A stretch of DNA of 63,935 nucleotides, filler included, from Craspedostauros australis (lineage: Eukaryota), in NCBI GenBank assembly GCA_030167865.1. It is 6 parts of 6 records of this genome, joined end to end, with 100 filler letters (N's around TTAATTAATTAA, not from the genome) between each part and the next. Parts side by side here need not be neighbours in the genome. Positions count along the whole stretch, not along the records: positions 24,979 to 51,809 come from JALAGF010002070.1; 5 more parts are not named here. One strand, written 5' to 3'. A program made the translations under genes and the position numbers. Below, piece by piece: positions 31,663-54,975 of this stretch (positions are counted from its first letter, which is position 1; every line of letters begins with the position of its first letter). Below the pieces are notes generated by a model. It worked only from the letters and a program-made list of their open reading frames with translations, searched no databases and was not told where the DNA came from.

Positions 31663-32607
31663 ATGTCGGAAGCTTTCACAGTCAAGTCGACCGCGAGCAC
31701 GGCGTCGATGTCAACCGACTCCTATGGTTCGACATCAACCATCACGCCGCAAGGAGAACTCTCTTCTTCGTCTCCTTCTCGCAAGAAGATTCATTTCAAC
31801 CCCAAAGTCTACGTGAGATACACTCTCCACATCAACAACTACAGCCGGGCCGAGACCGCTGCCACTTGGATCAACGCCAACGACCTCATCCGAACACGAA
31901 CCGAGATCCAACAAGCGCTCGAGGAGATCCAGCTTGGCGAGCGCGAGATGGAACGAGGTCTCGAGTACCGCACAAGAGCTGCCTCCACGAGGCGCAAGGC
32001 CGTGAAGAACGAAGCCAAGGCTGCCGTGCTTGACGAGCAAGCACTGCAGGACGATCCCTACACAGAGAATGATGCAGAGTACATCGCGTGTCTCTACACC
32101 GAGGCCGGGAGAGACTCCGTTGATCAGGCAGCCATGCGTGGTCTCTTGGACGAGCATGTTGCCAACCGACTGTATTCGAACGATGCGCGCTCAATTTGTT
32201 CGGATGACGACGATAGCAAAGATCACGAACACTTGAGCGCCGCATTCACAGCTTTGGCACATGCCGCCCAGGAACACGACCGACAGACTCGAGCGTCAAC
32301 AGAACAGAAACCAACATCGAAGTCAAAGTCGAGGCCGCCCAGGAGCAACTCTGCCATGGGATCGACTGGCAGAAGGCGGCGCCTGTCGTCGCTGAAGTTC
32401 CGTCCATCGTCATCAGGCCAAGTGCAGTCACCGCGCTGGGCCAGGAAGGCCGCGAGAAGCAAGCATGATAGCATTGGAGATGGAGAAGCCAGCGTGGCAA
32501 GCGCCAGCAGTGTCGGTACAAGCTACAGCGAGGACAGCCAGGGGGGCAACGGAAGTACGAAATGGACCATCGGTCCACTTCGGATGCTGCTGGGGAAAGC
32601 AGCTTAA
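31663..32607 (+). CDS. Uncharacterised RVxF/RGLE-family protein, paralogue 1 (candidate PP1 regulatory subunit)
   Basis: acaATG at 31663; RKKIHFNPKVYVRYTLHINNYSRAETAATW...ERGLEYRT...AVLDEQ...IACLY...RGLLDEHVA aligns with four other ORFs in this contig. Confidence 0.85.
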   Translation: MSEAFTVKSTASTASMSTDSYGSTSTITPQGELSSSSPSRKKIHFNPKVYVRYTLHINNYSRAETAATWINANDLIRTRTEIQQALEEIQLGEREMERGLEYRTRAASTRRKAVKNEAKAAVLDEQALQDDPYTENDAEYIACLYTEAGRDSVDQAAMRGLLDEHVANRLYSNDARSICSDDDDSKDHEHLSAAFTALAHAAQEHDRQTRASTEQKPTSKSKSRPPRSNSAMGSTGRRRRLSSLKFRPSSSGQVQSPRWARKAARSKHDSIGDGEASVASASSVGTSYSEDSQGGNGSTKWTIGPLRMLLGKAA

Positions 32608-34236
32608 TCAAGCCAAGGCTGGCACAATCGTATTGAGCAATACGCTTGTATGGTATCACAGCCTGTGTGTCGACGAATATAAGCAACGTCCGTGCGAGCT
32701 ACAAGAGCAAGAAGCCAATAGCATTATAAAATACAGCAAATAGAGCATACAACAAATAGGTCTACGAGGGTCGAGAGCCGCATTGAATACCAGCAATGGA
32801 AGAGATTCATTTTAGATTTCGAAGGAGTGTAGCTCAGTCGATAGTCGCGGTAGCTGCGCGGGTGTCCAGTGAAATGCTCAAGCACGGAGATGCCCCAAGA
32901 TGTGATTCCACAGTCCCCTGTACACAGTTGCCACCGGGCCGGTATGGAACGTACGTTGGTCAGATCATCTGATGCCGCTTTGATGATGCACGAAGCATCA
33001 GGTTCATGTTGGAGCCACGTTGGAATCACGTCGGGATCACGACGGAAATTCGATGGTTCCATGGCGCTCTGATGATGGAGAATACGTAGCATGCTTTGCG
33101 GAACAAGGAGTGGTGCACTTTCGCGCTTTTCCGGCGAGGAGAATCTTCTACTCTCAACAAACGAGGAGAGATACGACAGCATCGACGTGATTGTCCACGT
33201 ACACTGTGAGTGTTGTCCCGCGAAGCCACATGCCTCTCATCTCTCGACGAGTATTGACACTGGTAGCTCGAGCATGTACTGTAGGCATACTCTACACCAA
33301 GTCTGCCCACTCCGTACGGCGCAGATGAAACAAATACCTCCTCGACGAGTAGTCTCCTGAATTGGAAGAAGAGAGCGAGTTTTGCCTTGGATGATCATAC
33401 GCTACCAAGTGACGAGCATTGGCGTGGATCGATGGACCCGTCGGCACGCGGGTATGAGTGGAGGCTTGCTTGTAGCTCGTACTCGTAGACTTGGGACCCG
33501 CGGTGAGTACAACCATCCGGAGAGATGCTCGCACAGACGAACGTCGACGCGACTGCTGCTTCGTCCTGCTTGTCGCGACTAATCCCAAACCACACGAAAT
33601 GCCTCAAAGTCCGCTGGAATCACTCGAAACCTTCACAGCTGCTTCTAATGTCCGCTGCAGTCGACAGTGTGGACACCAAGGCACACAATTAGTCTCAAGT
33701 ATTGTACTCTGCGTAAAGCGTGGTACTCTCCCATACATTATGCTCTTCTCCCTTGAGTAAAATGGGATGCATCACAAAGCTCAAAACGATCCCAACATCC
33801 CAGCCAGTTACACGACCATAGATGTTACTTCTCGCATCACAGCGGTCACCAGCATAGGTCACCTCTCTTCCTGCGAGGCGATCTATCACAGCATACCATA
33901 CTCTCGAGATTGTGGTACCCGACTCTGCTCTGGTCTTTTTCTGCATTAATGTCGGCATCAATGTCGGCATCAGCACATGTCCCTCCGTGTTGACGAAAGG
34001 TGGTTGCCCCACCAATGTTTCCTGTTTTGGCTTATTCTCGCACAGCGACGGTATCACTCGCCAAAGGCTCTCCCGATGATTTTCCATGATGTGTGTTGGG
34101 CCTGATCCCACTCCAGAGCGTCTTAATTGTTCGGCACTTTAAACCATGTTCGGAGAATCGGGTCATTTCTGACTCATCCTCGCGCCACTAGCACACAAAC
34201 GCTCACAATTTGGACAAGGCGAAACAAGGACGGTCA

Positions 34237-34296
34237 TCAACGCCAACGCCAACACCAACACCAACGCCAACACCAACGCCAACGCCAACGCCAACA
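34237..34296. repeat. (CAACGC/CAACAC)n hexanucleotide microsatellite
   Basis: Directly visible. Confidence 0.85.
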
Positions 34297-36722
34297 AACA
34301 CTCACAAGTTGTCCGAAGAAATGCAAAGGCCCGAACCCAGGACTCCCGTCTTCAATGACGACAATCACATCACATCGCAACTCCACGCGATCGTGAAGAT
34401 GGTTCGCCCCACTCGAGCTTGTGAAGCAGACGGTGTCATGCCCATACATTGGATGTTTTGTCCTCTTTTGTCGATGGCAACGTTGTCTCTTCTGCTCTGC
34501 TTCGAGTTCGTGCACGCGTGGTGCCATGCTGCGCTGGCTTTGCGCATAGATGAAGCAACCGAAACACGAGGGGTGGGTGGCGGGTCCAGGGGCAGCGGCA
34601 GCGGCAGCGGCAGCACTGCAAAATGTTACCGATCGTACATTTGCAGCGTACCGCAGGGTGCCTTGTTGAGACACTCGACGCGTAGGGCACTCGGACACAG
34701 ATGTCAATGAGATAGCTCGTGCTACTCGTGGTTCGTCCATATTTGTTTTCTTTTCTGTGTTTTCTGGATCAAAAGGTGGAATAAGGCACCACTCCCGTTT
34801 TTCATATCGTAAGACTACGCCCACAAGACGATGTAGATTGGTCCTGGCGCAGGGGGCCAAGGATGCAGCCGACCGACAGATCTACTCCGACGGGAGAACA
34901 TGGGACACCGCGCAAGGGGATGCTCTGGTGTGCTGCTGTGTCGCTATCGGATCCACCGTGAAACCTGCTTCATTTATTATACACTATTATCCAATTACAC
35001 CTACTAGTGCCGCTACGTCTAGAGTACCTGTTCTGTGGTCATTTGATCCACCACGACACCTGCTCCGCCCGCCTCTGTTTGACTCATGCCAACAGAGGAA
35101 AACAGGATAGGCACAAGGCAGAGCGAGCGGCGTTCCGTTTTCTGTCCTGTGGATCAAATGATCTGCCGGGCGCGATGGGAACGATTGCTTCGGTCTTGCT
35201 CCATTCTTACTATTATGGGAAGCACGATTACGATTTCGTTTCAATCTAATAAGAGTAAAAGTGAGTGTGCGTAGGCACGGCGAGTGTCCATGCTCGAAGT
35301 GTTTTTATTCTTGTGGCAGTGCTCCAATGCCGAACAAACTGGGTTAATAACGTGGAATGGAGCAGAATAACGGTACTCACAGCTGCATGTATGGAATCAT
35401 AACTTTGTTGTCCCTTTTTTCTGTTTGGCCATGATTGACAAAGGAAGCACATCCTCTCTCGAAGTCAGGCCGCGATGTTTGGCAATGCCCCTGGCACGCA
35501 GGTATTTGTGTCCGTATTCCACGGTCCAGGTTCCCTTCCTTCCTCCTTCCCTTCTTCGACTTCGTGGCTGAACTCATTTCCATGCATATCGTGTCCTGTG
35601 GAATAGCATTTGGTAGCAGACCGAGAGATGTGGCATGCGGTAGATGTCCATTCGCACGCGGCTAACACTCCGCGAGCTATCGGTGCAGATCAATGGACGA
35701 CTGCGTGATGTGGGATGTGATGAAGCTGCCTGGAGTGTGTAGCAAGTGCAGTGATCATGGTCGGAACAGCCTAACGTCATCGCGCCAAACACTCCACAGT
35801 TCACATGGTGATGACAGCGGCACAGAGACATTGTTCCTCGCGACGTCGGGAGTTGCACGCTTCGGTTCCGCGATGACTGTCGACAGAGTTCGGTGGGCCC
35901 GAGCAGAGAAGTCGCGGGCTGGTGTAGCACATTCGCCGATGCGGCCATCCATTGGTTGGGCGTTGAAGAATGGATTCTGCGATGGCGGTGCGATAGATCT
36001 GCGCTCTATGTAGCTCGTATTGGAAGAGCAACCGTATTGGCATGCAAGCGTCCAGTGCTTCCCCACGACAAATACTGTGAAGGCGTGATACCTATTCTAC
36101 AAGCTATGCACGCCAGTCGTTCAGATGGGTCGCAGTTGGCGTCAAGACTACACGCACGATGCGAGAGTTGAAGTCGGGGGGTTGTATGGTTGTGTAATAG
36201 TGCCTATGCGTGGTAGCTTGTATGGTACTCTATTCGTGGAGTCCAGGTATTGGAATGGGGAACTCTTTCTCTCCCCTTCAGAAAGAGAGAGAGAGAGAGA
36301 GAGAGAGTATGTGTATGTGTATGGAACGCCGTGGGCATGGTGGTGCGATGCTACCTTTATGGGACTTGCCGCCGAAAAGAACGGACGAGTAGTTTTTGGA
36401 ACCGGCGTGAGAGCTTCTTTGGGGTGTGAACGAAGCGCAGTTGTTGGCGGGAGTGCTGACATTTGTTAATGCGGTGTCCATGATTCAAGCACATTGACAT
36501 GGATGGGGGGCATGTGTGTGCCTGTTCGGCGTCGACGCGTCGCAGCCACCCACGGCGTCATTCTCTCCTGTCCCGGGCTGTCCGGCTCTTGTCTTGGTAG
36601 CCTGTCTTGTCTTTGGCTCGATTCATCCCACCCTAGAGATGCTGCAGACAAAAAGGTAATGATGTAAGATTGTGGCTATGACTGTGACTGATTGTCTACA
36701 CTATTCTCTCTAGAGAGGATAT

Positions 36723-38396
36723 CTATGCGGCTGTGGCTCTGTTCTTCCTCTTGGACTTTTCCCGGTTTGTCTTCTTGGTGATAGCCAGGAGGGAGAGCAG
36801 CGAGGATGCCGACGACGATGATGTGGAAGCGGTGCTGATGCTATTCTTCCTGGACGCCTTGCCATCGATACGGTTGGTTGAGGAGTGGAGGGAATCGGCG
36901 GTGAGATCCCGAAGAGCCGACATGGAGAATCGTTTCTTGGACTTGCCGCCGCAAGGGCTGAGGCCTTTGGAAGTCGCGCCGTTGTTGAACGTGTGGTTTT
37001 GGTTGCCATGGTGCTGGTGGTGCTTCTGTTCCGAAAGTGCCTTGCGCATGCTGCTGAAAGGACTCATGCCCCTGGCACCTCGTTGGAATCGCCGCTTGAT
37101 GCCCGGGGAGCTGATGGTGGAGGAGAAGCTCTCGACGCTTGGCAGGCCGGATTGTTGCTGATGGTGTTGGTGATGGGAGCCTTCTGAAGCCGATGCATTC
37201 GTGTGCGTGATGGTCTGCATGACCTCGTCAAGGACGCGCGATGTGGTGACGACGTTGGACGCATCGACACCCTCAATATGAAAGGCCGCAGTTTGGTCGG
37301 CGCTGGCCGTGACGAGGATACCGCGGACCTTGGGCGTTGGCTTGTGGGTGGACGATGAGAGTGGCGGCGCGGAGGTGAAGAGGGCGAATATGGCGTCGTC
37401 GTCCCTGTCCTCCTTTCGGACGGCCAAGGCGGCCTTGTGATCGGCCCTGCCCAGCTCCCAGGCTTCCGTCATGCATGGCTGCGTCTGTGTTTTGTAGACC
37501 CTTGCGATGGTGTCGGGGAAGAAGACGCCTTCCGATTTCTGCGCCCTCTGCTCATCCAGCACGGCCGTTCTTGCGATGGCCTTGTTTCTGTTTCTGCGCT
37601 GGAGGCCCTGCTTCGTGCGGCATTCCAAGCCGCGGTCCCGTTCGGCGTGGGGATCGGCCTGCATGCGATGGACGGACGATCTGGCTTGGCCGCGGATCTC
37701 GGCGATGTCCTCCATGGAGTACCATGACTGCTTCTTCTCTTCTTCTGTGTAGTTGTTGACATGCAGCGTGAACTTGGCGCGGACGGCTGCGTCGAACCTG
37801 ACCCGCTTGCGGGTGGTCCTCACTTGCCTGGAGCGGCTGTGGCTGGTGCTTCTGCTGCCGCTTCTGCTCTGACTGCTGCTGTGACTCCTGTTGAGGGACC
37901 TTCTGCCGCCCCTGCTCGAGGTCCTGACGATGTTGCTGCAGCTGCCCCTCCTCTGCATGCGACCGAACTTGCCGGTCTGCACCAGAGGCTGCGTGACGGC
38001 TGTGTCCGTGTGATGCCAGGAGGAGGAGTCCAGGGTGGAGTCCAGGGAGGAGGCAGGCCCCGTTGCGGCGAGCGGCTTCTTGCGTTTCATGAACTTGGAC
38101 AGCGGTGAGTATCGAGGCGCGATCATGGGAGCTTCCATGAAGACGTCGATCCCATCGCCTTTCTGTTCAATGGTTCCATTGTGTCCATTGCTTCCATTGG
38201 TTCCATTGTGTCCATCATGACCATCGAGCTCATGGCAGCTGTCGGAGCCGAGGCTCACGTCGGTGGCCACGGAGGAAGGAGAGGAGAGGTGAGCGGGAGG
38301 GCAAGGCACCGCACCCTGCTGCTTGTCAGCGCCTGGAGGCAGAGGCGCAACGCTCCGGTTGCTCTGGTTCCTCTGCATGGTGGATGCGTCCATCAT
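36723..38396 (-). CDS. Uncharacterised RVxF/RGLE-family protein, paralogue 2
   Basis: 557-aa ORF; RKRVRFDAAVRAKFTLHVNNYTEEEKKQSWY...DRGLECRT...AVLDEQ...IARVY...LGRADHKAA, with long S/R-rich disordered flanks. Confidence 0.88.
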   Translation of the reverse strand: MMDASTMQRNQSNRSVAPLPPGADKQQGAVPCPPAHLSSPSSVATDVSLGSDSCHELDGHDGHNGTNGSNGHNGTIEQKGDGIDVFMEAPMIAPRYSPLSKFMKRKKPLAATGPASSLDSTLDSSSWHHTDTAVTQPLVQTGKFGRMQRRGSCSNIVRTSSRGGRRSLNRSHSSSQSRSGSRSTSHSRSRQVRTTRKRVRFDAAVRAKFTLHVNNYTEEEKKQSWYSMEDIAEIRGQARSSVHRMQADPHAERDRGLECRTKQGLQRRNRNKAIARTAVLDEQRAQKSEGVFFPDTIARVYKTQTQPCMTEAWELGRADHKAALAVRKEDRDDDAIFALFTSAPPLSSSTHKPTPKVRGILVTASADQTAAFHIEGVDASNVVTTSRVLDEVMQTITHTNASASEGSHHQHHQQQSGLPSVESFSSTISSPGIKRRFQRGARGMSPFSSMRKALSEQKHHQHHGNQNHTFNNGATSKGLSPCGGKSKKRFSMSALRDLTADSLHSSTNRIDGKASRKNSISTASTSSSSASSLLSLLAITKKTNREKSKRKNRATAA

Positions 38397-38470
38397 TGTC
38401 CTGCTTGTTCTTTTGTGTGTTGACGGAGAGTGCGATTGCTGTGATCGTGCTTTGCTCTTGCTTTGTGATC

Positions 38471-38498
38471 TGCTGCTGCTGCTGCTGCTGCTGCTGCT
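38471..38498. repeat. (CTG)n microsatellite upstream of paralogue 2
   Basis: Directly visible. Confidence 0.85.
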
Positions 38499-41400
38499 TC
38501 TGCTACTGATGATGCTGGTCTTGTGCTTGTGTTTATGATTGTGTTTATGATTGATCCTGGTGATGACTTTGCGATCTGGTGTCTGCCACGTTGCCTTCCG
38601 CTCTTGTGTGCTTTGTTTTGTGTGCTTCGTTCTGCTTGCCTCGTTCCGTTCGTGCGATTCCTTGTTTATGTTCGCAACAAAGGAGGAATTCTGTTTCGGT
38701 CGGGAGATTCACGGTTTGGGAGTTATTTGGGTGTTCTGCCGAGATGCCAGTACCTGTAACTCTGACTGCTGTTACGCGCTTTGTCGGGTTGGCCTCTGTA
38801 CCAATATGTGTGGCGTGTTGTGCGCTTCTTTTGCCGTGATGTGCAAGTACTAGTACTGGTGCTGTGCAGGCATGGACACTGCTCGTTTGGACGCAAGAAA
38901 CAAGGTTGGGAGATGGGAAAAGACTTGCTTCTCACCGATGCCTTTTTCTGATTTGCTTTCTGCGGTGCCTTGTTGCGTTTCTACTCGACTTTCTGTGTTG
39001 CTCTCCGTTTAAGATTGTGAGAATGCTCCTCCATCCGCTCCGCCTCTTTCTCTTTCTCTCTCACTACAGCCCCGAAGAAGTGCGTGTATGCTGCTATACC
39101 TCTGCACTCTTGCGTGTTTCTGCGCTGGTGTGCGAGGACTTTCGTGCCTCACTCTTCCTTGCGACCTGCCTTTCTGGCCTCTCTGCCACCGTTCCGACAG
39201 GAGTACAAGCTATCACCGCGATTTGTCGTCCGCTCCGTGATGCCGCTGCGACTCGCGCTGTTGCTGTCGTGCCCCTGTCCAATGTCGTGGGCGGAGAGCG
39301 TCTTCAGTCATTTCCTTCGCGGTTACCGGCGATGGTACGAGCCATGGTACGTTCCCTGCGCGGGTGTTGCTGCCGCCACTGTTTCTACCGTCGTGGCGAA
39401 ACGGCAACGATAGAAAGATGCCGAAAAGAGCCATCACAGAAGATGCATGTTTTGCGCTTTCCACGAAGTTGCGCAAAGACTTGCTCTTCGTGTTATCGGA
39501 GAGCACTGACGAACAATGGCGAGGTCGTGATGTGGGTGGAATGCTCGTGTCCCAATATGTCCAACGGGCGCTCTAAGCGCAAATCTGCCTCTGCGCAACC
39601 AAAATCAGGTACTGCCAAAATGTCACATGTAGACTATTACTCCCCGGTTCGAAAATACTCATTGTTCGCTGGAATTCGGCACATGGGAGAGTACGCTATT
39701 TGCACCAGCCATCGCAACAACTATGCCAATAGTCCGTCATTGACACAAAATAAAATGTCAAACTTTGCATAAATCTAACTCCCCACAAAACTACGAACAA
39801 AAGGTGAGGCCGTTTCGGCGCCAAAAACAGCACACATTTCCTGATACTGCTTCCCTGTGGCACAGTTTCACGAGCAACAACGGTATCGGTTCAATGATTC
39901 CATCAAGCGAGTGGATTGGGGGAGGGCTTGAAGCCGACTGGATGAGCAACAACAAGGACGGCCGCAATGTGTTCGTACCATGTTCGTGCTCCGCGCATTG
40001 ACAAAGTCGCCCTCAGGCTTTGCGGTAGGCTTTTCTTTATCTCGGATATGATTCAACCCAACACATAGAGGAACAATGCCGACATCACGACTCGGGATGC
40101 AGCCAGCGAGCGACAAGGTATCATTCCACACAAGATATCATAGTCGCCCGGGGGCGGGTCGGCATCATTGGGATCATGGCTCGTGTGGAGTAGAGTAACA
40201 TGTATTACGAGCTATGCCTGTCATGTTCTCCAGCAACCCCATCCGCGGCTCTTGTTCTTCACATTTTCAAACCAGGCCGCCGAACTCTGTTGTGACCGTC
40301 TCACAGTATGCGCAACAGGATGGGCATGGGGACCGTGCCGTCCGAGCGACGAGTACGATTGTATCTCATCCCAAGACGTAGTTTTACGTGTACCACAATG
40401 CAAAGCGACGCAATTCAGCGCAATGCGGTGGAGCGGATCCCGGCCACACAACCCCGGCGTCCAAGGTTGAAGCGCACGGTCCAGAGTGTCGCGCCAACCT
40501 TCCTCTCCATCATGTCTCTCCGGAGATGTCTCCATCTGGACACACTTCGCAGTCGATGCCCTTCCGCAATGTTATTTTCCAATGCACCAAACATTCACCC
40601 CAAAGAACAACACGAAGCTGCAAAAGATCCAACAGCTCCTCCTCCGCTGCCGTCTCCAGGTGACATTGGGTTGAATCGCGTCCAAGTCTGGTATTTGTGG
40701 ACTGCGCTGCGTCAGTGCCTGGTCGTACATCTTGATCTACGAGCTTTGGTACACTGCTGCCCAATTGTCCATACGCTCGAGACGAACTATCGCGGAGCTC
40801 CTGTTGCTACAGTATCACGATACGTCCGTATGGCAGTCAACGCTTGTCGATGCCAAATCACGCCGGAGGAGTTACAAAATCGTCGGCCTGTCGCTGGACC
40901 TCCTCGTGTGCTTTGTCTTACTCCCCATGGGCGTCGTTGTTGCGAGTTCGGTGGAGACTTTTCACGGCAGCTGCCTTTCCGACGATGTCGTCTGCACTTG
41001 GGGATGTTCTCGTTGCGATGTTACTCGCTGTTTGGACCGCCAAGACCAGTTGCTCGCATACATCAGTGCATTCATCGCCGCCGCTTGTTCTGTCTTGCGA
41101 TTGCCTCTCGTGGGTGATTCGCATCGACGGCCTGTCAAGTTCCTCTTTGTGCCGTGGGTGCTTCGCAATGGCTCCTCGCTCTCGTAGGTCGTACGTCGCA
41201 CTCTGCACCCCATTCATCAAAAGGGGGAGTCTATGTGCCCGCACGTCCGAAACACCAAGCATCACTCCGCAGACTCCACGAAGAGAGTCACCAGAATCCC
41301 ATATAGTAGTTGGTATAATGGGCATGAGAGACGAGTCGCTCTCTTGCTGAAAAGCTCCCACCTTCCGTGTAGATTGGTGCCGCGATGGGTGCTGGCAAGA

Positions 41401-43858
41401 CTTCACCTCCACGAGCAAGAGAGAGCGATACCGTCAGGACAACAGCACGAGTTTGGTCGATCAAAGAATGTGGATGGACATCAAAAGCTTGAACTCTATC
41501 GCTCGAGCATCGGCCGGCCAACCAACCAACCAACGAGCACATCGATACTGGCCACTGGCAGAGCCGTCTGAAGTCCGAGGAAGAGACAGGAGGCCAACTT
41601 GTCATCACGCAAATACATACGGATGAGCGATCAGCGCGTTCGTGCTTCAATCCAATCTCATCCAGGTCTGGGGTCACCTCCAACCAAGTACAATGCGGAG
41701 GCATCCCCATCATACGAGTATAGTAGCTCGTATGACACCAGAGGTCGTAGTTGTAGCTCGCACATACTCGCGTGAGGACAAGTTGTATGGAGGACGGCTT
41801 TCAGTCTTTCTCCAATCTCCGATCTCTGCTTGCGAAACGGTGAGCTTAACTCTGCCGTCTATCGACTTTGTCGTACTCGTGTCGATGGATGTCGTCCACC
41901 ATCCAGTTCAGCATGTCACGACGATGAGGCATGCAAAGCCCATGGTTTCAGAATACGAGTGCATCCACAGATGCAAGCGATCAAGCGAAAAAGAATGGCG
42001 ACACAGAATGCCCGATTCGGAACATCAGATTCTTGAAGAAACGGAGCACGGCATGCAGGGTGTTGGTCCGCTGTTGACGCGCGACGTTGCACAGAAATGC
42101 GCCCCCATTCTCGACGTCCAGCTCCGTTACGCCGTGGACGGTTTCTTCCACATGTTGTGGCTTTGATCCACCGCAACGAGCACACTCATCCGCATCCATT
42201 GCTTCTGGTACAAGATTTCGGAACTTGGCGATGCCTGGCACCCCAAAGTGTTGCGGTGGGAATTTGGGTGGAGTAAACGGACGTATGATAGAATAGTATA
42301 CTCTCCAGAGAGCAAGCCTTCACAGCCAGTTGCCGCGCCCATGTTCTCCGTTTCCCTCTGCTTGGAGTTCGAATCTATTCGTACTCGTGCGTGTATTGGC
42401 AAGGCGTCGACGACGGAGCAAAACATTGTTTCCGGTGTTCTGTCCAAGCGTTCTGTTGACGATAATTGTGTGCGCCATCTCGTTGTTGTGCTCCTCTTCG
42501 CTTTGGTGTCCTTCTGTTAGTCATTGGTGCGGGTATTGGAAATGACCGCTCGTGAGATCTTGGGACGTTGTTGCGCTCACTTTTTCGATGATTGTGCCAT
42601 TTGAGTCATGGATATTTGTTCGCTTTCGGGATCGAGATCGTGTGAGTCACAGTTTGGGGAATGATGTCAGACATGACCAGCGTCACATGTGCCGGAGAAT
42701 GATGTCGTTTCGGTCATGTGGAACGAAATGACACAACCAGTCGCGGCGGTGTGATGGGAAATCTCGCGCAGTCCTTCGCAATTTTTGGACAACCTCCGAA
42801 GCGGCGCAAGGACACCTCGGAATCTGAATACAACATTCAGCAGAAAGGCGGAGAAATGGGGACATGCCGTGGCGGCGTTGCGAAATGGAAGGATGTGCGA
42901 GTGCTGAGCGTGTTTGTCCAAAGCAATCCTCCGCTCCCATTCTTCTCTGCTCGACAAATCTGCTCGAGGTTGTACCTTGCATGGACGCGACTTGGATGCT
43001 ATGACGAGCGCATGGTGTCATGGGAACAGAGATGGGGGAGCTCCTGTTCTGCCTCTCTCCTTCCTCCGGTCGATGACGTGACCGTTTCGCGGCAGAAGGA
43101 AAAAAGAAGAGTCTTTCATGCACAGCGCAATCTAGCAGAGAAGAGGTATTTTCGTGATGACAATGTCAATGACAAACGTGGTCTGGGCCATAGATGGGTT
43201 GGCCTGCCCACAATTTGGTTGCGTCATCGAAACTTTCGAGCAGATTGTTGGGCTCCTGGCCATCACCACGATCAAACAAGCCAAGGGGCAGCTGTTGTGA
43301 CAAAACCTAACCTCCAGGAACGAGGACTTTGGCGCCATACATCCGGCCGAGGCACAGTACCACACGATCAGTCGTACCAATACACCTCGCGGTCGTCTCC
43401 ACACCCTATCGCGAAGCTTTTGAAGTAGCGCAGAGCGGAGGAGAAGCAGCGTTTTTGCCATCTGCATCGACTTCTGCTGAATCGACTCCTCGCGTGAGCA
43501 GAATCATCCGCTCCATCGTACACGTATTACACAATACACATAACACAGTATACCTGCTTACCGCACCAAACCCACGTCTCTCAAACAAAGATCAAGCAAC
43601 GAAGAGAGAGTTGGCGCCGAGACCACGTGAACTCCATTCGGAATCACGTCGCAGTCGCAACAGAATCACGTGCGAGCCACAATACCTGTGATAGATCGAA
43701 TAATTGTACTATTCCAAACTCCCGCGGTGAGGAATCATCGTGCCACTTGCAATCATAAATCATCAAACACAAGCACAATCAAAGCATTGATGCGAGTACG
43801 AGCTACGACAGCAAGCAGCAAGCAACAGACAACAACACACGCTCAACCACCACCAACC

Positions 43859-45670
43859 ATGCAAAGCACAGTTGCACCGAATCATACGTGGGATCATCTC
43901 ACCCACCATGGCAACGAAGAGAAAGCAGAGCATGAAGTCTTTAACGCAATCCACATCGATGTCGACACGATCGTCGATGGCCTTGGGATTGCTTCAGCAG
44001 AAGATTTCTTTGAGAAGTTGAGCCAGGTCGGAAGCATCGAGATTCTTCATGGGGAATGGATAGGTAAGGATGTGCGTACAACAGCGGCAGAGGCTGAGGC
44101 AGTTCAGGAGGATAGCCCAAAGGGATGGGACGGCGCAGGGTGTGCAGATTGCGACGCTCGTGCTCAGCCAGAGCAACACGACCGTTCCGTTGCTTTTACC
44201 TTCACCCCCTCGCATGATGGTATTCCGCGCACATTCATCATCCCTCGGAAGATGACCAACAGCCTCCGCAGCACCATGGCCGGCGACAAGCCGCATCCTG
44301 CCTCACAAAACGACAGTTTCCAGATTTGCGACTTGAGCGAGTCCAACTTGCGAATGCGCGATGGTGCAATCCACAAACACAACAACATCGTCAGCGACAG
44401 CATCAGTGACAACAAATGTGGCATCAATGGAGTTCATGGAGTCAAGCGCTTGGGCGGCCATGACGTCGATGATGATTCCAACTCCTCGTCGTCTGCAACA
44501 ACGGCGCCGAGCAGCACGACGATGGATGATTCGATTGGCGGCGCCTCGATCATCCATGATTCGATCTACGATATCGCCGACAACCACGAGAACGGCGACA
44601 GAGACACCCCATCACCCGCCAGTCAAGATCATCCTCAAGTCGCTCGCAAAAGGGTGAGATTCTGTTCGTGCTCTCATGCCGCAACGGCTGCGTCGGCATC
44701 ACTGGCGTCGTCGGCGGGTGGACCACCCGACGGCATTCCAAGCAACGCGCATGGTGCGCAAACCGCCGACTGCACCTGCGCACCATCGGTCACCAAAATC
44801 ACCATCATATCACGCAAGAGCTACAGCTGGGAAGAAAAGCAGCAGGTTTGGTACAACCTCAAGGACTTGCTCATGTTCAAGTCCGATGCGGACCGTGTCT
44901 GGAATGACATCCGGATGGGTCGCATCCCCATGGAACGTGGCCTCGAGCACCGCGTCAAGCTAAGTCCCATCGAACCGAGTCCCATCGGCGCGGCCATTCC
45001 ATTTCCAGCTGCAGCTGCAGCCGCAGAACACCAGCTTGGCATCGTCGAGAACGACACCGAGGCCACGCAGCCGTATCCAGGAATGGATGAAGCGACACAC
45101 GGCCTTGGCCTTCAAGACCAGCAGCCGGCTGTCCGCAAGCAAAGATACATCCTACGCAATCGCAAGAAGCAACGTGCCACCGCCCGGCGTGCCGTGATGG
45201 ATGCACAACGAGAATATCTCACCAGCCTTTGCGAATCACGCGAAGCCTGCGGGACCGAGACAATCCGAGTGGAAGAAGAGCTGGTGGCCAACATGTACCG
45301 TCCTCACACCTACTCGAGCCAGACATTGGCAGCCATCGTCGGATTGCTCGACCAGAAGGTTGCCAAGGCCGTCTACCTTGAAGAGCATCACGATTGTCAA
45401 GACGATCAACACAATCGCATGACAGACAGTGGTTCAACCACAGCCGGTATCGATGTTCATCCGCCTGTCTACCATCACCGTGACACAATCGAAGATGGGA
45501 AGGAAACATTGGACGCAGATGCAAATGTTGGCGGCTGCGGTATTCTGGATGGTCATCCTTCCTGCGCGTACACGCACAGCCCGAAGCGGCGCGTTGCGAT
45601 GTTCCAGATGATGCTGGATTGTCGCGAGCACGGTTATGTGCTTCCCGGCATGTTCATGAATGAGTTGTAA
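43859..45670 (+). CDS. Uncharacterised RVxF/RGLE-family protein, paralogue 3 (two insertions in the domain)
   Basis: accATG at 43859; RKRVRF-[insert]-VTKITIISRKSYSWEEKQQVWY...ERGLEHR-[insert]-...AVMDAQ...VANMY...VGLLDQKVA. Confidence 0.82.
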   Translation: MQSTVAPNHTWDHLTHHGNEEKAEHEVFNAIHIDVDTIVDGLGIASAEDFFEKLSQVGSIEILHGEWIGKDVRTTAAEAEAVQEDSPKGWDGAGCADCDARAQPEQHDRSVAFTFTPSHDGIPRTFIIPRKMTNSLRSTMAGDKPHPASQNDSFQICDLSESNLRMRDGAIHKHNNIVSDSISDNKCGINGVHGVKRLGGHDVDDDSNSSSSATTAPSSTTMDDSIGGASIIHDSIYDIADNHENGDRDTPSPASQDHPQVARKRVRFCSCSHAATAASASLASSAGGPPDGIPSNAHGAQTADCTCAPSVTKITIISRKSYSWEEKQQVWYNLKDLLMFKSDADRVWNDIRMGRIPMERGLEHRVKLSPIEPSPIGAAIPFPAAAAAAEHQLGIVENDTEATQPYPGMDEATHGLGLQDQQPAVRKQRYILRNRKKQRATARRAVMDAQREYLTSLCESREACGTETIRVEEELVANMYRPHTYSSQTLAAIVGLLDQKVAKAVYLEEHHDCQDDQHNRMTDSGSTTAGIDVHPPVYHHRDTIEDGKETLDADANVGGCGILDGHPSCAYTHSPKRRVAMFQMMLDCREHGYVLPGMFMNEL

Positions 45671-46027
45671 CGACGCATTTAGCCATCGCCATGGCCGCAC
45701 TTGTACGCGAAGTACAATCGATTGTACGAAGATCGAGGATCAACGCAAACATACATAGAGTAGAGTATCATGCATGCCATACAAGTAGAAATACAATCAC
45801 ATCACAAGGTACAGCCACGCGAATGCAATGCATATCATCCACCACGTGTGCTGTGATAGTGCGTGGTATGTTGCTGTTGTGTGTCATTATGCTTCGCTCT
45901 GATTATATTTCTGTCTTGGGTGGCGCTGCGGGATGATTCGAGTCGCTTCATTCTGGAATTCCAGACACTTCTCATCCATGTTGCAGGTATGCAGCGCAGT
46001 TCATCGTCGACGCTGATGGCAGCACCA

Positions 46028-46585
46028 CTATCCGCTCTTGCTCAATGCCTTCTGCAGTTGGCCATTGCGGAATGCCGCCTGCGTGTCGTCGTTGCCACCC
46101 AAGAATTCACCATTCACCCACACGTTCGGAACCGTACGCTGACCTGTCAGGCGATACAGATCCTGCTGGATCTTGCCTCCGTTGGGCATGTCATCGAGTT
46201 CATGCACGACGACGTCGACATTGGCGAATGCTGGGTTTGTGCGGAAGAGCTGCTTGGTGCGAGCGCAGTACGGGCAGTACGACTTGGAGAATATGACCAC
46301 CTATGGAGGTATCATATCAAGTGCCCCATATTGTGGGGAGGGGTCGCAAGTTGGATGTGAAGGGGGTGAGGGTGGAAAGATGGAAGCAGAGGTGAGACAG
46401 AGAGGGTGACCATGGCGATGGGCGCGGTAGCACAGATGCGTAAGTCCTCAATGATCTTCTCCATCATTATAGTTCCATCACGGACGTACCTGATGAGCGC
46501 TTACTTCAGACTTGATGAAGTCCACAATTGTCGATGCCGATGTTTGCGAGTGCAGGTGCGAGCTCGATGGCTTCTGTGTGAACAT
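46028..46585 (-). CDS. Dithiol (CPYC) glutaredoxin; 2 exons (46585-46490, 46300-46028)
   Basis: VDFIKSEVSAHQ|VVIFSKSYCPYCARTK...VHELD...TGQRTVPNVWVNGEFLGGNDD; a phase-0 GT..AG intron at 46489-46301 (gtacgt...ccatag). Confidence 0.95.
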
Positions 46586-48693
46586 GATTGAATTGCTAGT
46601 GTTGGAGTGAATCGAGTATGAGTGCCGTGTGTGATTCCTGCTTGCGGTCTGATTTTGTGGCGTGAAGAAGTCGTGAATGCTAGGCTGATTGCGATTGTCG
46701 TGATTGTTGTATGAATACTTTTTATGAGGAGATGAATGGAGGGTGCCGCTTCCTGAGTTGGGTAGTGGAGAGGAGGGAGGTCCCGCCTTGTTGTTGCGTT
46801 TTGGATGAGTTTGTCGCGATGTGATGTGATGTGATGTGGTACTGCGTGATGCGTTTCCGTTCAATTTGTGGGAGCCTGGAGCGAAACGGCCCAAGCAGAA
46901 ATCAAAGAATGATCGATTGTGTTCGATGACAATCCTGATGAATGCACCTGACCCATTCGACTGCTTCGTAGAAGCTCACGAAGTCTTCGAATAGATGGAC
47001 TGAACTGAGATTCTGAACGAGAAGTGTTCCTGGATGATTCTGCGAACATCTTCAATGAGGCAACAACGCGCCCACAAAATAGACAGGCCACTGTGTTCCT
47101 GTCTGTTACTGTTACTCTCTGGAGGGAATACGAGCTATGATACTTTGCTGCAGGTCGCCAACAGCCAATCTGATCGGGTCGCAACATGGCGCACATGAGT
47201 CCAATGCCAACGGAGTTTGTACTCTACTCTGTAACATGGCTCAGTGTGCACGTTCCCTCTGGAGAGAGAGTAGCGAGTCTCGCGACGTGGTGTTCTCCGC
47301 GAGATCCAGGAAAGCCCAGGCAAGGAGCCAGATAGACACTGGCTTCGATCCCATCAAACGAGTGCACCAAGAGACCATCAGCAGTGCGAGACCTGCCCGT
47401 GCGAAGCTTGGATGGAGAGCTGCTTCCGAACCACGTATGTGTGTGTGCGTGTGTATCTGTGATGATGCCTTGCGTTGCATCACCTCCGAGTATTGCCAGC
47501 ATAAGCTAGATCGACCAGTCCCATCTTCTTTGCGGTTCGTAGTCGTACGATATTGCATTCCGGGTGCTTCCAGGTCGTGTACGACTATCTATTCCGTATG
47601 ATGTGATGCTTGCAATGCTGTGTCGATCAATTGAAGACTCTTTCCCGTGCGTCCATTACCGCCCACTCATGTACTCCAGATTCTGTCCTCGTATAGCACG
47701 AGTATCAAAGTCACGATCCAGATCGATCAACAGCAAGAGCACCTCTCGGATCCAATCATCCGGCAATCGTACCAAACCTCCCAGTGGAGAGCATCAAAAC
47801 AAGACGCTTCCAACCACCAGCTCCACTTCAGTCCGTTTCACGTGTGCTTGTGTTGCTCTTCGCCATTCGCCATTCGTCCTTCCGTACACGTATTCGTAGT
47901 CGTCGCACAAGTACTCGCGGGCTTGGACCTGCTCGTGTCGTTTGTTGGATCGTGGCCACGAACAGTAATAGAGTAGAGTGCTCTCTCTCTCTCTATCCGT
48001 CCGGAGACAGAGACAGAGAGGGGAGGTAGCACCCTCCGGTGAATCAGTCCATGCTCGTCCTCGGCGCGGTTGTCGGTGGCGTGTTTGTCTCTTGCGCCAT
48101 TTTCACGGGAATGTTTTTCTTGCGGGTGGATCACGCGGTGAAACTTTTCTCCGACATCGTTGTGGCATCAGATTCCTCCAAAACACGGGACAACACAGAC
48201 GTGTGAGCCCGACGAAAATGCCATGATCGATTGGTCGCAAAGCCTTTTGCCATCTCATGTTGGTGCGCAAAACGGCATCGGGAGACATAAGGTGTCCGTG
48301 ACACGAACAAAAGAACAAACATCGGAGATAAATTGTGCGCTTCTGTCCCTCGTTCTAGCTTAAGTGGACATGGTCACAATCGATCAACCTGGTATTCGTT
48401 CGTGCTATTGATGGATTGATTGTCCCCCTGTATGCACACGGACTGTTCTGCATGCTGTACTCGTGCGCCTAAGGGCAGACAGAGTTGGGCGTTTGCACAC
48501 CAAACAATGAAGGACAAACAAGTCAGTTCGGTACCAATGCTTCGCTGTTCATTGTTGCGGGTTGTTGCCATTCGCACTGCCCAGCTCCTCGCAAGTCTCA
48601 GACACACCTCCATCTTCTCTCATAAAACGGGCAAAACAACATCAACACAAAATACTCACAATTCACACAATTCACACAAACCACACAATCAAC

Positions 48694-49320
48694 ATGACCA
48701 ACATCAAGAAGACAGTCACATTCAGCGCACACGTGCGTTGCAAGTTCGTTCTGCATCACAAGAACTACACGCAGCAAGAGCGCAGCAACACCTTCATGAG
48801 CCAGAAAGAGATGCAAGCAATCAAGGAAGACATCCGATCCGCACTGAAAGCAATCGATGAGGGCTCCATGCCAATGCAGCGAGGTTTGGAGACGCGGACG
48901 ATCGACGCAACGCGACGACGTGCAACTCTGAAGGACGAGGCAAGAACAGTCGTTCTCGATGAGCAGGCAGACCAGATGGTCGCTGGTGATCATGATCCAG
49001 ACTTCATCGCCATTCTCTACCAACGGGCATGCCACACAAGCCAACAGAGCGCCTCCATGCGCGGAATGATGGATGAACATGTGGCCAAGAGGCTCAGAGC
49101 TGAGGATGCCACGAAGCAGCAGCAGGAACAACAACAGCAACAGGAGCAGCAACCACAGCCAGATTGCGAACAATCTTCACTGCAATCGCCAACACAAAAT
49201 AAGAGAGCATTCTCTTCAAAGGTCATCTCGTTCCCATCCAAAATGAGAACAAGCCCGTTGAAGCCAATGAAGATGTTGGCGGTTGGTTCCATCCGCAAAC
49301 TCGTTGGCAGGACCAAATAG
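48694..49320 (+). CDS. Uncharacterised RVxF/RGLE-family protein, paralogue 4 (minimal form, 208 aa)
   Basis: aacATG at 48694; MTNIKKTVTFSAHVRCKFVLHHKNYTQQERSNTF...QRGLETRT...VVLDEQ...DPDFIAILY...RGMMDEHVA. Confidence 0.88.
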   Translation: MTNIKKTVTFSAHVRCKFVLHHKNYTQQERSNTFMSQKEMQAIKEDIRSALKAIDEGSMPMQRGLETRTIDATRRRATLKDEARTVVLDEQADQMVAGDHDPDFIAILYQRACHTSQQSASMRGMMDEHVAKRLRAEDATKQQQEQQQQQEQQPQPDCEQSSLQSPTQNKRAFSSKVISFPSKMRTSPLKPMKMLAVGSIRKLVGRTK

Positions 49321-51200
49321 AGCACTTGATTCACCGTTCTCGGGCAGGATGCCATACAGCGCCTTGTGCTATGGACATCCGGAGACTTCGACGCACGTGG
49401 TCGAACGTATGGTCCAGCAAATACGGGATGAAACCGAACAACCTGGGCAGCAGATGCAACCGCACACATCGATGCCGTTCCAAGTGCGAATAGACATGGA
49501 AACACCAATGCACAAAGAGATAGACATACAGATAGAGAGATAGATAGATAGAAATAGAATAGAATACAATGATACAATACAACACAGTCTAATAGAGGAC
49601 ACGAGCTTCAACTCAACTCGACAGAAGTCAGCCGAGGACAATTCAACTTGGTACAGAGCAAAGTCCAAAGTCCAACTTGAGCCAAACTGCTCGTGGAGTG
49701 CCTCGGCTCTGCTGACACACACACCAGCACACTCTGTTTGCGGGGCTCTGCGAGTAGGGAGCATGCTCTGGCATTCCAAAGCACGAGATTGCTCAAAACC
49801 GAGTGAAGGAAACCGCCCAATCCGCAACATGTTCTCTTCGCGTTTCGTGGACTTGTCGATCATCGCAGTGAATACCTCTGCAACTCCTCCGCAAACAGAT
49901 CCTCCAAGACGGTTAGGGTGCGGTGCGTGGGACGATCTCAGGATGTCCAGCGGGCAAGAGTGGTCAAAGCTCTTCTCGTGTCTGTCTACCTTTGTTCCTC
50001 AGTGCTTCGATCCACTTAGCACTTCGTTCTTTGCTCCAAAGTTCTCTTCCCAACGTCTCGAATTACTCACGGCGGTGTGGATGATGTCCTTTGCAGGGAG
50101 TTCCCAGCCGCTCCACTGGCAGATCCCGAGAAAGGTCAACCTCCTTCTCTTTTGTTGTATCTTCCCATCTGCCTTCGAGTATCTTTGCGTTCTGCATCCC
50201 AACAAGCAGTTTCCTGAGCCCCCTTCTTGGTGTGCACGTCTCTGTCTGGCGTGCTGGTTTGGATGTGCGAATCCGGAGCACAAATCCCAAACAGCAATCC
50301 TGCAAGTTGCAACGACAACATCGCCTCCTGCACGCGTATGTCGCATGTGGAACATGTGCAGAAGCCCTGGAAAAAAGCGCAGAGCAGACGTTACCCCACT
50401 GAACGAACGAAAGACGATTCATGGATCGCCAAGGGCCTGCCACAAGAGATGAAAAGCCTCCCTCCTCGAGATACGGGAGCGCTTCCTGTCTCTTTCATTT
50501 TGTCTGTGAGTCAAGGCACAGGGATTCCTGTTCCTTCCAACACCCGCTGGGTAGAAGTTCACGGTTGGTCGCGAAACGTGATCATGGATCCAGTATGCAA
50601 GGGCGCGATGCCGTGAACAAAAGGGTGGCGAACACACCTTCACAAAAACGCAGATCTGAAACATGAATCGAGTCCTGTATTCCAGACGACAAAAGGACAG
50701 ACAGAAGTCAAGATGGAATCGTTCGATATGCACCGAAATGCACACAAGTTGTCAAATATACAGACAGACATACAGACAGACAGACAGACACAATGATAGA
50801 ATGACAGACAAGCCTTTTAGCGAAGACAAGACACGACAGACTCGAGCAATAAATAACAGAGATGCAACTTGAATGCACCGAAGGTCGGACATCTTACAAT
50901 CACATGCGAAATGCGCTTCGTCCTCATGCTGCCTGCTGCGTTGAGACTGACGCAGAAGATGTCCGCTCCGCAAGCTCGCTGCGGGGGGTCGGGCCTTGCA
51001 TGTATGACGGTACATGCTGCCAGTGTGGCATCTACGTGAGCGTGTTGCTCGCAAGAGCACACGCAGTATTGGTGATCGTATGAATGGCGTTGATAGGAGG
51101 ATGTTCTATTTATGAGATTTATTGTGCGTTTGTGAGTGATGATGGATTGTAGAGGCTCAGCGAGTGCTCCAGGACTGTTCAGCGCGAACATCCTTCCTCT

Positions 51201-51809
51201 TTAGGCGGCCTTACCCGCGAGGGTGCGCTGCTTCGGTCTTGTTGGGGATTTGGCGGAGGGCACTGGTGCTGGTGAAGCAGCATCGATTCCTGCTCCTCCC
51301 ATCTTGGCGATCTTGAGAATGGATCTCACGCCTTGGCTGGATCTTCCCAACGACTGGAAGATCTGCTTGGTTGGCGCGACGATGCTCTTGCTGTTGCTGC
51401 TCTTCATGGTGATGGTGAAGTCACTGCTACCACTCTTGTCGCTGTTTTCTGTGTTGTCTGTATTGTTTGGAGCACCGTAGACGATCTGCTCGTCCATGCG
51501 TCCACGGATGTGCGCCTGGGCCAGCGAATGCCTGCAAGCCTGGGAGTACAGAGCTGCAATGAATTCTGGATCGCTCTCTCCATCCTCCTGCTGCACTTCC
51601 TGCTCGCCCATGACGGCATCCCACGCCATGCGCTTGCGCTTCGTCTTGCGTGCGGATCCCTCCCTTGTGCGGGCCTCCAGACCGCGTGGGACGGTGGCAA
51701 GGGTGCCATGGTGCAGAGCGTGCAGCTGGTTCTTGACGTCCTGGCGCATCGTCTTGCTCTCATCGTCGCTGTACCAGCATGAGAAGTACTCATCGTCTGT
51801 GAATTCCTG
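51201..51809 (-). CDS. Uncharacterised RVxF/RGLE-family protein, paralogue 5 (5' end lost at the contig edge)
   Basis: The frame is open to the gap: QEFTDDEYFSCWYSDDESKTMRQDV...PRGLEART...AVMGEQ...DPEFIAALY...RGRMDEQIV. Confidence 0.85.
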   Translation of the reverse strand, partial: QEFTDDEYFSCWYSDDESKTMRQDVKNQLHALHHGTLATVPRGLEARTREGSARKTKRKRMAWDAVMGEQEVQQEDGESDPEFIAALYSQACRHSLAQAHIRGRMDEQIVYGAPNNTDNTENSDKSGSSDFTITMKSSNSKSIVAPTKQIFQSLGRSSQGVRSILKIAKMGGAGIDAASPAPVPSAKSPTRPKQRTLAGKAA

Positions 51810-51909
51810 NNNNNNNNNNNNNNNNNNNNNNNNNNNNNNNNNNNNNNNNNNNNTTAATTAATTAANNNNNNNNNNNNNNNNNNNNNNNNNNNNNNNNNNN
51901 NNNNNNNNN
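51810..51909. other. Artificial contig linker (44 N + TTAATTAATTAA + 44 N)
   Basis: Same 100-bp structure as at 24879. Confidence 0.97.
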
Positions 51910-53816: not shown

Positions 53817-54975
53817 GTCTGCCGTGTTGCTGTCCTTGATTCTGCGCTTCAGAACGAGTATTCCGATGAATTACAATGGTGCGTTTGCTGAGTGCTGTGT
53901 TTCCTCTGTCACGTTCAATTTTGTGTGTCGATCAATAATCCACGAGCATTAGAGTATGTAAGTTTGATGATTGCAAAGCAGCACATCGGATTGCGGGCAT
54001 TCATTTTCGCAGCACCACCAATGTGGCGATGGCAGATGTGTTTGGGCGAGGAGGATTTGGTCATTGTTCGTTGTGTTCGCTTGTGACCCCCTGACCGGCC
54101 AGAGTTGGGTGTGAATCGGCCCCCTTGATGTGTCATCGGCAGTCTGGAATCTTGGTGAGAGATTCCGGCTTGGTTGCCGGTCACAAAAGAAGATGTGGCC
54201 TCACGATGGATTCGTCACATGCAATTTTCATTTCCCAAGGAGGAGGTAATCTTCCGCGCATCATCTCATCGCAACAACACCATGACCGTTCATGATGAAT
54301 TCGATCGGATCTCGTCGCCATTGTCGCCATCTTCGTTGCCAACATTATGCCCTTTCTGTGATGTGTTACTTTGACGCTGGTGCTGATGGTTTCGTTTGTT
54401 CGTTGTTGGGGTCACAACACAAATCTGCCGTTTTCACGTTCAACGCACAAAAACACAGGTTAACGTCAGTTAACGTTCGGGAACACCACGTTCAGCGATA
54501 CTTTAGGTGGGATTTACGAATCATATAACGGTGCCACGCCAGTCGGCTACAACGGTAATATCACGCCAACACAATTTGAGGCGCAACAACGAACAGAACA
54601 AATGCACGTCAACATCACCTCTGCAATTGGTGCGTACGTTTGTTGGGAACAACTGGCGATCTCAGTCCTTCATCAACGGCAGAAGCGTGAAGTGTGTGAA
54701 AGCATGGATGGCATGAATGCACGGACGGTTGTCAGCTCGCGGTGACTGCAATCATCGTGTGTGCGGTGACGTCGTTCGGCCACCATCGCGATCATCTTTC
54801 ATTTGAGCAAACCCGCTGCATCCCACAACACACATCGCAGGACCGAATCACGACATTCATCGAATCCCTCGCTGTTCTCTGACATACACAAGAGACGAAG
54901 AACCAACTGTCCATCAACGCTGTTTCGACGAGCACATCACACGCATCACGACGTAATCAAGCCAACTCAACCACC

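Follow-up and report, generated by a model that had tools for sequence, protein, structure and literature searches.

A lineage-expanded diatom protein family as probable regulatory subunits of protein phosphatase 1

The window, a stretch of 63,935 nucleotides of DNA from the diatom Craspedostauros australis (GCA_030167865.1), carries on one of its contigs five open reading frames (ORFs) that share a core of about 135 residues and belong to a very large, unnamed and apparently diatom-specific protein family. We propose that this family probably represents a new, lineage-expanded group of regulatory subunits of protein phosphatase 1 (PP1), with the catalytic subunit (PP1c) bound through the core. 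A preliminary description of the same DNA had read the proteins as PP1 targeting or substrate-specifying subunits built from a conserved docking and helical module, and all the computational checks that were run support this reading. The specificity of PP1 in animals comes from its partners, some 200 mostly unrelated proteins that have short motifs in common, as stated in the excerpts used of two papers (PMC4794898, PMC7599070). A literature search on RVxF motifs in diatoms and on PP1 regulatory subunits in Phaeodactylum returned no paper on diatom PP1 partners.

When the ORFs from a six-frame translation of the window were searched with a profile of the core (hmmsearch), exactly five matches were obtained, with expectation values (E) from 2.8e-64 to 4.9e-49, and these are the five ORFs that had been placed there before. 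The similarity among the five cores is far beyond chance. A possible sixth copy on the minus strand at 33295-33603 (E 0.062) was rejected because its translation is devoid of any core motif. Paralogue 1 (plus strand, ORF 31663-32607, 314 amino acids, E 4.4e-59) has its core at 31774-32187 with the motif KKIHF at 31783-31797, ends in GKAA and provided the core used as partner chain in the complex prediction described below. Paralogue 2 (minus strand, ORF 36723-38396, 557 amino acids, E 2.7e-57) has its core at 37404-37817 and the motif KRVRF at 37794-37808; it carries long S/H/Q-rich arms and ends in Thr-Ala-Ala (TAA in one-letter code). Paralogue 3 (plus strand, ORF 43790-45670, E 4.9e-49, core 44639-45388, KRVRF at 44648-44662) is 626 amino acids long from its first ATG at 43790; the start at 43859 assigned to it earlier is the second in-frame ATG (residue 24). 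Paralogue 4 (plus strand, ORF 48694-49320, 208 amino acids, E 2.8e-64) consists almost entirely of the core (48700-49110) and has the motif KTVTF at 48709-48723. Paralogue 5 (minus strand, ORF 51201-51809, E 1.4e-50) is open to a run of N, retains a core remnant at 51456-51809 and also ends in GKAA. Its motif end is indeed absent, as had been noted, but the gap to which the loss was ascribed is a spacer between joined contigs. Paralogue 5 is thus cut at the contig end rather than degenerate, because the spacer lies at 51810-51909 and the homologue P0002, which is 97% identical over 202 amino acids, shows an intact start with 34 extra N-terminal residues that include KKAVRF.

The alignment of the five paralogues has 14 invariant columns in the common core, including those of RGLE.R, A..V...Q, A..Y and G..D. 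The core identity to paralogue 1 is 24-35%. That the five share a core was correctly recognised in the preliminary description, whereas the length of about 125 amino acids given there has to be extended to 129-137 profile columns. In paralogue 3 the contiguous core pattern given with it is interrupted, 39 amino acids being inserted directly after KRVRF and 62 after RGLEHR. P0031, the nearest relative of paralogue 3, likewise takes 228 residues over the core. The codons for R-V-R in paralogue 3 (AGG GTG AGA, 44651-44659), after which the 39-residue insert comes next, resemble a splice donor; an intron was considered as the cause of the insert, and inspection by eye found no in-frame GT...AG pair that would excise it. 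The flanks of the five paralogues cannot be aligned, in agreement with their earlier description as unrelated and disordered, and the tail of paralogue 4 was modelled with the low confidence that such arms would have (values below).

Relatives outside the cluster are closer than those inside it. The closest outside relatives are P0006 for paralogue 1 (41% identity over 302 amino acids), P0018 for paralogue 2 (53%), P0031 for paralogue 3 (35% over 348 amino acids), P0001 for paralogue 4 (55%) and P0004 for paralogue 5 (49%), and the identity between cluster members is 30-40% over the core. Because every paralogue is closer to an outside relative than to its cluster mates, the duplications are old and the cluster has been retained rather than formed recently.

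The family to which the five belong is large. A search of its profile against 1.84 billion cluster representatives gave 6160 proteins at E≤1e-3, of which 2741 were found at E≤1e-10 and 15 at E≤1e-30. All the matches that came with an organism name were from diatoms, namely Craspedostauros, Seminavis robusta (as 'expressed unknown protein') and Pseudo-nitzschia (Psemu1), in agreement with the lineage expansion proposed in the preliminary description. The nearest Atlas clusters are labelled 'hypothetical protein' and are most commonly from Bacillariophyta. Transcriptome-derived proteins are among the homologues, and the typical match is 165-250 amino acids long, barely longer than the core. The five full-length ORFs gave no Pfam family beyond sub-threshold noise at E≤1. 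When 121 members were scanned against Pfam, 13 families were matched by one member each with E from 3.5e-4 to 0.01, the chance level for 121 scans. The consensus of the core begins with K-K-x-V-[ST]-F-x3-V-x-V-x3-L-H-x-[ND]-[DN]-Y-T-x2-E-x4-W-Y, continues with C-x-R-G-L-E-x-R-T-x2-G and R-x2-N-K-x2-A-x2-A-V-L-D-E-Q-x2-Q, and ends with G-x2-D-x-E-x-I-A-x2-Y and A-x3-G-x2-D-E. A basic-leucine-zipper (bZIP) reading of the basic helix R..NK..A..AVL was tried and rejected, as the helix has no bZIP match in Pfam and is followed by a loop and more helices instead of a zipper. A subset of the homologues has a characteristic N-terminus: M-[PAST]-[PA]-[LFY] occurs in 27 of 150, and its M-P-P-L-S-like form marks a subfamily that includes P0023, P0036, P0037, P0039, P0042 and P0047 among others.

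The start of the core has the form of an RVxF motif, by which PP1 partners dock. Two consensus forms appear in the excerpted text of one survey, a short one, [RK]x0-1[VI]{P}[FW], which roughly one protein in four contains, and a stringent one, [KR][KR][ACHKMNQRSTV]V[CHKNQRST][FW] (PMC4794898). The short form fits 141 of 156 family members, which is in accord with the earlier assignment of KRVRF, KKIHF and KTVTF to this motif class, and the stringent form fits 54 of 125, all at one aligned site. Paralogues 2, 3 and 4 fit the stringent form; in paralogue 1 an I replaces the V. Among 120 PP1c proteins that served as controls, the stringent form was found nowhere (0/120). Retention of V-x-F across homologues had been set beforehand as decisive for the motif, and at the aligned site 163 of 165 members have F and 165 of 166 have V, I or L, with a preceding K or R in 144 of 156. 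Between V and F, 104 of 156 members carry a Ser or Thr. Beyond the motif, a hydrophobic pair follows with V at +4 from the Phe (122/165) and V, I or C at +6. At +24 there is a Trp in 153 of 170 members and an aromatic residue in all 170, the spacing from Phe to Trp being exactly 24 in 152 of 173.

To model the core, AlphaFold2 (AF2) was given an alignment of 121 sequences. The core of paralogue 1 was predicted with a mean per-residue confidence (pLDDT) of 94.6 and an overall score (pTM) of 0.68. Four to five helices were modelled, at residues 25-31, 35-53, 68-92, 101-111 and 113-137, and residues 1-19 formed an extended segment with no regular secondary structure at pLDDT 83-91; the motif segment was assigned as coil by DSSP in the models of both the paralogue-1 core and paralogue 4. 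In full-length paralogue 4 the core was modelled at pLDDT 88-98 and the tail at 53-60. A Foldseek search of the core model against the PDB found nothing at E≤1e-3. An exhaustive VIA scan reached a top Z of 7.0 with generic helical hairpins that cover residues 57-138 only, and residues 1-56 were barely covered. Two weak Foldseek rows were chains of Phactr1 complexes (6zeg_C and 6zee_W, E 5.6 and 6.8), and neither was among the 37 matches listed in a second VIA look, in which the top Z was 6.2 and 45 of 53 chains had Z≥2. Kinship with Phactr1 at the level of the fold is unsupported. The lack of a solved fold would be expected for such a chain, because the core may take its shape on a partner.

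The complex of the core with a diatom PP1c was then predicted. Genes for PP1c were collected with a short motif pattern from metagenome contigs as uninterrupted ORFs; one diatom PP1c among them, L056, shares 92% identity with a Cylindrotheca protein and 91% with the Epithemia protein P0181. P0181 is a diatom PP1c of the ordinary kind (327 amino acids, PF00149 and PF16891), and its residues 1-310 were combined with the paralogue-1 core. The interface score (ipSAE) was 0.91 in three of three runs, and the best of three controls, one of them with PP1c replaced, gave 0.00. Between 226 and 240 contacts were predicted, at least 92% of them agreed between runs, and the pLDDT of the partner was at least 87. 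As a benchmark, 51 of 78 solved complexes pass the mark, as do 2 of 108 mismatched pairs. For eukaryotes the passes number 71 among all 105 solved pairs, 39 among the 65 for which no similar earlier complex exists, and 2 among 126 unrelated pairs.

The predicted interface is where an RVxF partner would be expected to sit. The numbering of P0181 is that of the human enzyme plus 5 (D76, R137, W154, K155 and N276 correspond to D71, R132, W149, K150 and N271). The pairs with the lowest expected error were F8 with PP1 residues 295-296 and residues 12-16 with 298-302 in strand beta14, the latter at 0.5-0.6 Å. In the model, then, V/I and F lie at the RVxF groove and the following segment pairs with beta14, which is what the preliminary description had anticipated for a complex with a diatom PP1c. 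For the helical part, the lowest-error pairs were V85/L86 with 221, A119 with 198-201, and G123 and D126 with 159 and 162. The PP1 contacts, in P0181 numbering, are 28-32, 75-76, 79, 83, 100-104, 133-134, 137-140, 155-156, 197-207, 247-248, 266, 275-282 and 293-306; with human numbers they include P24, Y70, D71, R132-Y134, K150, P192-V195 and N271. Both core residues 30-33 and PP1 137-140 (which include I133/Y134) are part of the predicted interface. As to a salt bridge of the Arg type with D71, PP1 75-76 (Y70 and D71) are in the contact list, and H19 and Y/F23 of the core are candidates for the contact. Some 100 residues of the core beyond the RVxF part have no sequence relative in the PDB.

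The conserved residues of the family fall in this predicted interface. It holds 25 of the 30 most conserved columns as against 49% of all scored columns, and the interface columns have the higher relative entropy (Mann-Whitney p 2.4e-9, and 3e-7 for residues 35 onward). The conserved residues inside it include W32, F8, G62, Y108, H19, Q89, D126, V85, E64, A119 and R61; Q92, E88, T67, D100 and column 70 are conserved but lie outside. That these core residues are retained in a family that diverges fast would be explained by a partner that hardly varies, such as PP1c. On the side of the enzyme, ECAGINR and RPCDVPD stand in the consensus of diatom PP1c (alignment A4, at 134 and 198 of P0181), both near the hydrophobic groove, with a Cys at the position that we take to be T193 of the human protein. 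A Gly stands at human S129, a residue that appears in the excerpted description of the human groove (PMC7599070). The invariant family residues A119 and G123 are predicted to pack at the diatom Gly and Cys sites, and the two sides may have co-adapted.

The modelled binding mode resembles that of the PP1 partners with an RVxF-phiphi-R-W string, a functional class to which Phactr, spinophilin/neurabin, PNUTS and PPP1R15 belong. Phactr1, in the excerpts of its structural description, occupies the RVxF groove with LIRF, extends beta14 by a strand, bridges D71 and N271 and contacts P24/Y70; its W542 lies on I133/Y134, an amphipathic helix follows on R132, I133, W149, K150, S129 and D194, and contacts to M190 and P192 come next (PMC7599070). 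The diatom core model covers all the cited Phactr1 sites on PP1 (6zee, 6zeg) and continues beyond them to 100-104, which includes the equivalent of R96, and to the 275-282 loop at the active-site rim. Its helices lie over the hydrophobic groove and over the 190-196 loop beside the active site. This coverage suggests a Phactr1-like logic, in which a composite surface would set the choice of substrates. The two proteins differ in many respects. The diatom family has no RPEL repeat (Pfam, five full-length ORFs, E≤1) and no detectable sequence similarity to Phactr. Its core has roughly double the length, contains three additional helices and an RGLE loop that does not vary, and has an F-to-W spacing of 24 rather than 20. 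It also has no conserved Arg motif, and its docking motif is the canonical [KR][KR]xV[ST]F where Phactr has LIRF. In spinophilin and neurabin, the same excerpts relate, a helix comes after the RVxF-phiphi-R-W string and reshapes the hydrophobic groove (PMC7599070). Paralogue 1 shows a likeness to this type in its basic-I-H-F ... Y-S-N-x-D-Y segment, but the diatom ORFs lack a PDZ domain, a coiled coil and an actin-binding region (Pfam, E≤1), and HMMER detected no similarity between the family and a PDB chain. What the preliminary description pointed out as a likeness to spinophilin and Phactr stands for the mode of binding and not for detectable homology, the profile search of PDB sequences having returned nothing at E<1.

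A third likeness is to PPP1R15A/B (GADD34 and CReP) and their viral relatives, in which a basic-V-x-F motif is followed three residues later by V-x-V-x-x-L and then by a Trp. The diatom core follows the same pattern, and among Atlas clusters that carry a Pfam family at all, the nearest has PF10488 (PP1c_bdg) in 16% of its members at a score of 0.86, which we regard as a lead only. PF10488 itself was matched neither by the five paralogues (E≤1) nor by the 121 members (E≤0.01), and the family gives no sign of the downstream part that recruits eIF2alpha and actin in PPP1R15. With RPEL, PDZ and PF10488 all absent from the scans, the diatom proteins belong to none of the Phactr, spinophilin and PPP1R15 families; the likeness is one of modelled binding mode, and the conserved interface of the diatom family is much longer.

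In the mechanism that we propose, the basic [KR][KR]-x-[VI]-[ST/R/H]-F would dock into the RVxF groove of PP1, and the following V-x-V would extend beta14 by a strand. The His/Tyr segment and the Trp 24 residues past the Phe would reach the D71/Y70 pocket and I133/Y134. The RGLE loop, the basic helix (R..NK..A..AVL.EQ) and the two C-terminal helices (I-A..Y ... A...G..D) would cover the hydrophobic groove, and the same helical part would also cover the 192-202 loop and the active-site rim. The disordered and unrelated N- and C-terminal arms would set the location, the substrates or the control of each paralogue. Substrate specification, as by Phactr1, and inhibition are the two candidate effects on PP1 to which the model points; inhibition is possible because the interface is broad and has contacts near the active site. 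RV[S/T]F motifs are a known basis of phospho-regulated docking, and the Ser or Thr that so often lies inside the diatom motif suggests a regulation of this kind.

Several observations weigh against the proposed binding to PP1. A kinship with known PP1 partners was not found by sequence in Pfam or among PDB sequences: the matches to PP1_inhibitor (1/121, E 0.0033) and Phostensin (1/121, E 0.0087) are at chance level, and the family profile found nothing below E 1.4 in the PDB, where the row concerned (Ctap1) was judged to be chance. The short consensus is missed by 15 of 156 members, for example through an L at the V position or a D at x. The canonical Arg motif is not conserved; the Arg element seen before in paralogue 1 is there, but it is not a feature of the family, its column being mostly D or E (D55 and E31 of 170), and what is conserved nearby is a His (H19, 143/167) and a Tyr or Phe (Y/F23). 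The complex score supports binding and is no proof of it, and it is uncalibrated for disordered or predicted chains. PP1-RVxF complexes have been solved, and model memory may account for the pass as far as the RVxF segment is concerned. The match of conservation and interface is not fully independent either, as predictors tend to face conserved residues to a partner. Finally, the N-terminal segment was modelled confidently without PP1 and could pack on the helices of its own chain.

The last point would fit a core that is an autonomous helical domain unrelated to PP1, nuclear or nucleic-acid-binding or serving some other docking, with the V-x-F...V-x-V strand lying on its own helices. The high confidence of the monomer (including pLDDT 83-91 in that segment), a rigid spacing between F and W of the kind typical of a fold, the conserved basic helix and the lack of detectable homology to known PP1 partners all speak for such a domain. 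We nevertheless consider it unlikely, since no solved fold fits it in Foldseek or in the VIA scan, DSSP assigns no strand in residues 1-19, Pfam gives no bZIP or other DNA-binding match, the motif follows PP1-specific rules at five positions, and the complex passes where the controls, including the one with replaced PP1c, remain at 0.00. Less probable again, in our judgement, is that the partner is a PPP-type phosphatase other than the canonical PP1c, either a particular diatom PP1 paralogue or another PPP. The complex test is blind to the family member, close cousins of a true partner having passed in 10 of 12 cases; several distinct PP1-like sequences exist in marine contigs, such as L055 and L007 with N-terminal extensions of 100 amino acids; and the diatom groove differs from the human one in the Gly for S129 and the Cys for T193. 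Against this, the RVxF groove is a feature of PP1, and the phosphatase with which the prediction succeeded is an ordinary diatom PP1c.

A chance or low-complexity similarity, or ORFs that are not genes, has a negligible probability. The arms are of low complexity and no run on record as RNA is listed, but the profile search of the window separates the five cores (E 1e-49 to 1e-64) from the next ORF (E 0.062) and, with the 2741 homologues at E≤1e-10, some of them transcriptome-derived, refutes it. Contigs of a public run, X1, that we guess to be RNA match the window exactly at 36692-37211, 45357-45573, 47000-48019 and 48646-49511. The last of these contains the entire ORF of paralogue 4 with 48 and 191 flanking bases and no gap or difference, and the first overlaps paralogue 2, again with no differences; the missing cover for paralogues 1 and 5 and for most of 2 and 3 is uninformative. 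The exact 1020-base match at 47000-48019 lies between paralogues 3 and 4, contains only short ORFs (154 and 105 amino acids) that gave no Pfam match, and may be an unannotated transcript.

The C-termini of the family showed a new regularity. Ala-Ala-COOH ends 56 of 168 family proteins and none of the 120 PP1c controls, about 1 in 150 being expected by composition. In the window the Ala-Ala tail is encoded at 32599-32604 (paralogue 1), 36726-36731 (paralogue 2) and 51204-51209 (paralogue 5). The pattern before it is weak: position -8 tends to be R, -6 hydrophobic and -4 S or G. Read-through of a splice donor (GGTAAG) as the origin of GKAA was rejected as a general cause, since most of the tails are preceded by other residues and the transcriptome-derived P0001 retains GKAA. 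To our knowledge no known signal corresponds to such a tail, which may act as a degron at the C-terminus or as a second motif for docking.

A wider proposal, which we put forward tentatively and hold to be possible rather than probable, is that a large part of the diatom PP1 holoenzymes is formed with this one expanded family of thousands of sequence clusters. Its new PP1-embracing domain of about 135 residues would be combined with a phospho-switch in the motif (104/156) and with an Ala-Ala tail as degron or second docking element (56/168), in the service of a diatom-specific control of the cell cycle or of day and night. The core would span the RVxF groove, the entry to the C-terminal groove, the hydrophobic groove and the active-site rim, and the tail R-x-hydrophobic-x-[SG]-x-Ala-Ala-COOH together with the Ser/Thr of the motif would make the proteins switchable, short-lived subunits.

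The cluster lies on a single contig within the window. Five spacers, at 24879-24978, 51810-51909, 58626-58725, 60981-61080 and 62716-62815, each read N44-TTAATTAATTAA-N44 with stops in all six frames, and show the window to be a chain of at least six contigs. The window is concatenated at the spacers; therefore, adjacency across them is without meaning. The cluster contig occupies 24979-51809, between the first spacer and the second, and also encodes a three-fold fasciclin protein (25766-28255, Pfam). Elsewhere in the window, Pfam identified an HSF-type gene (4727-6532), a copia-type gag (62816-63934) and a SAICAR synthetase that is divided on the minus strand between two adjacent ORFs, 13708-14682 (Pfam positions 88-228) and 14746-15774 (positions 3-90), most simply as the result of a short intron. 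A PT-repeat protein is encoded at 54883-57609. According to the Pfam scan the remaining genes, HSF, SAICAR synthetase, fasciclin, glutathione S-transferase (GST) and copia gag, are ordinary eukaryotic ones.

If the family does consist of PP1 regulatory subunits, thousands of 'hypothetical' diatom proteins would gain an annotation together through one unnamed domain, and diatom signalling would have a concrete and testable hub. The case would be an unusual one, in which PP1 partners evolved as a single large family of homologues whose interface is long and structured instead of a scatter of short motifs. The core would also be a compact PP1-binding module that could be used in diatom cell biology, and the family may supply much of the repertoire of PP1 regulatory subunits in diatoms.

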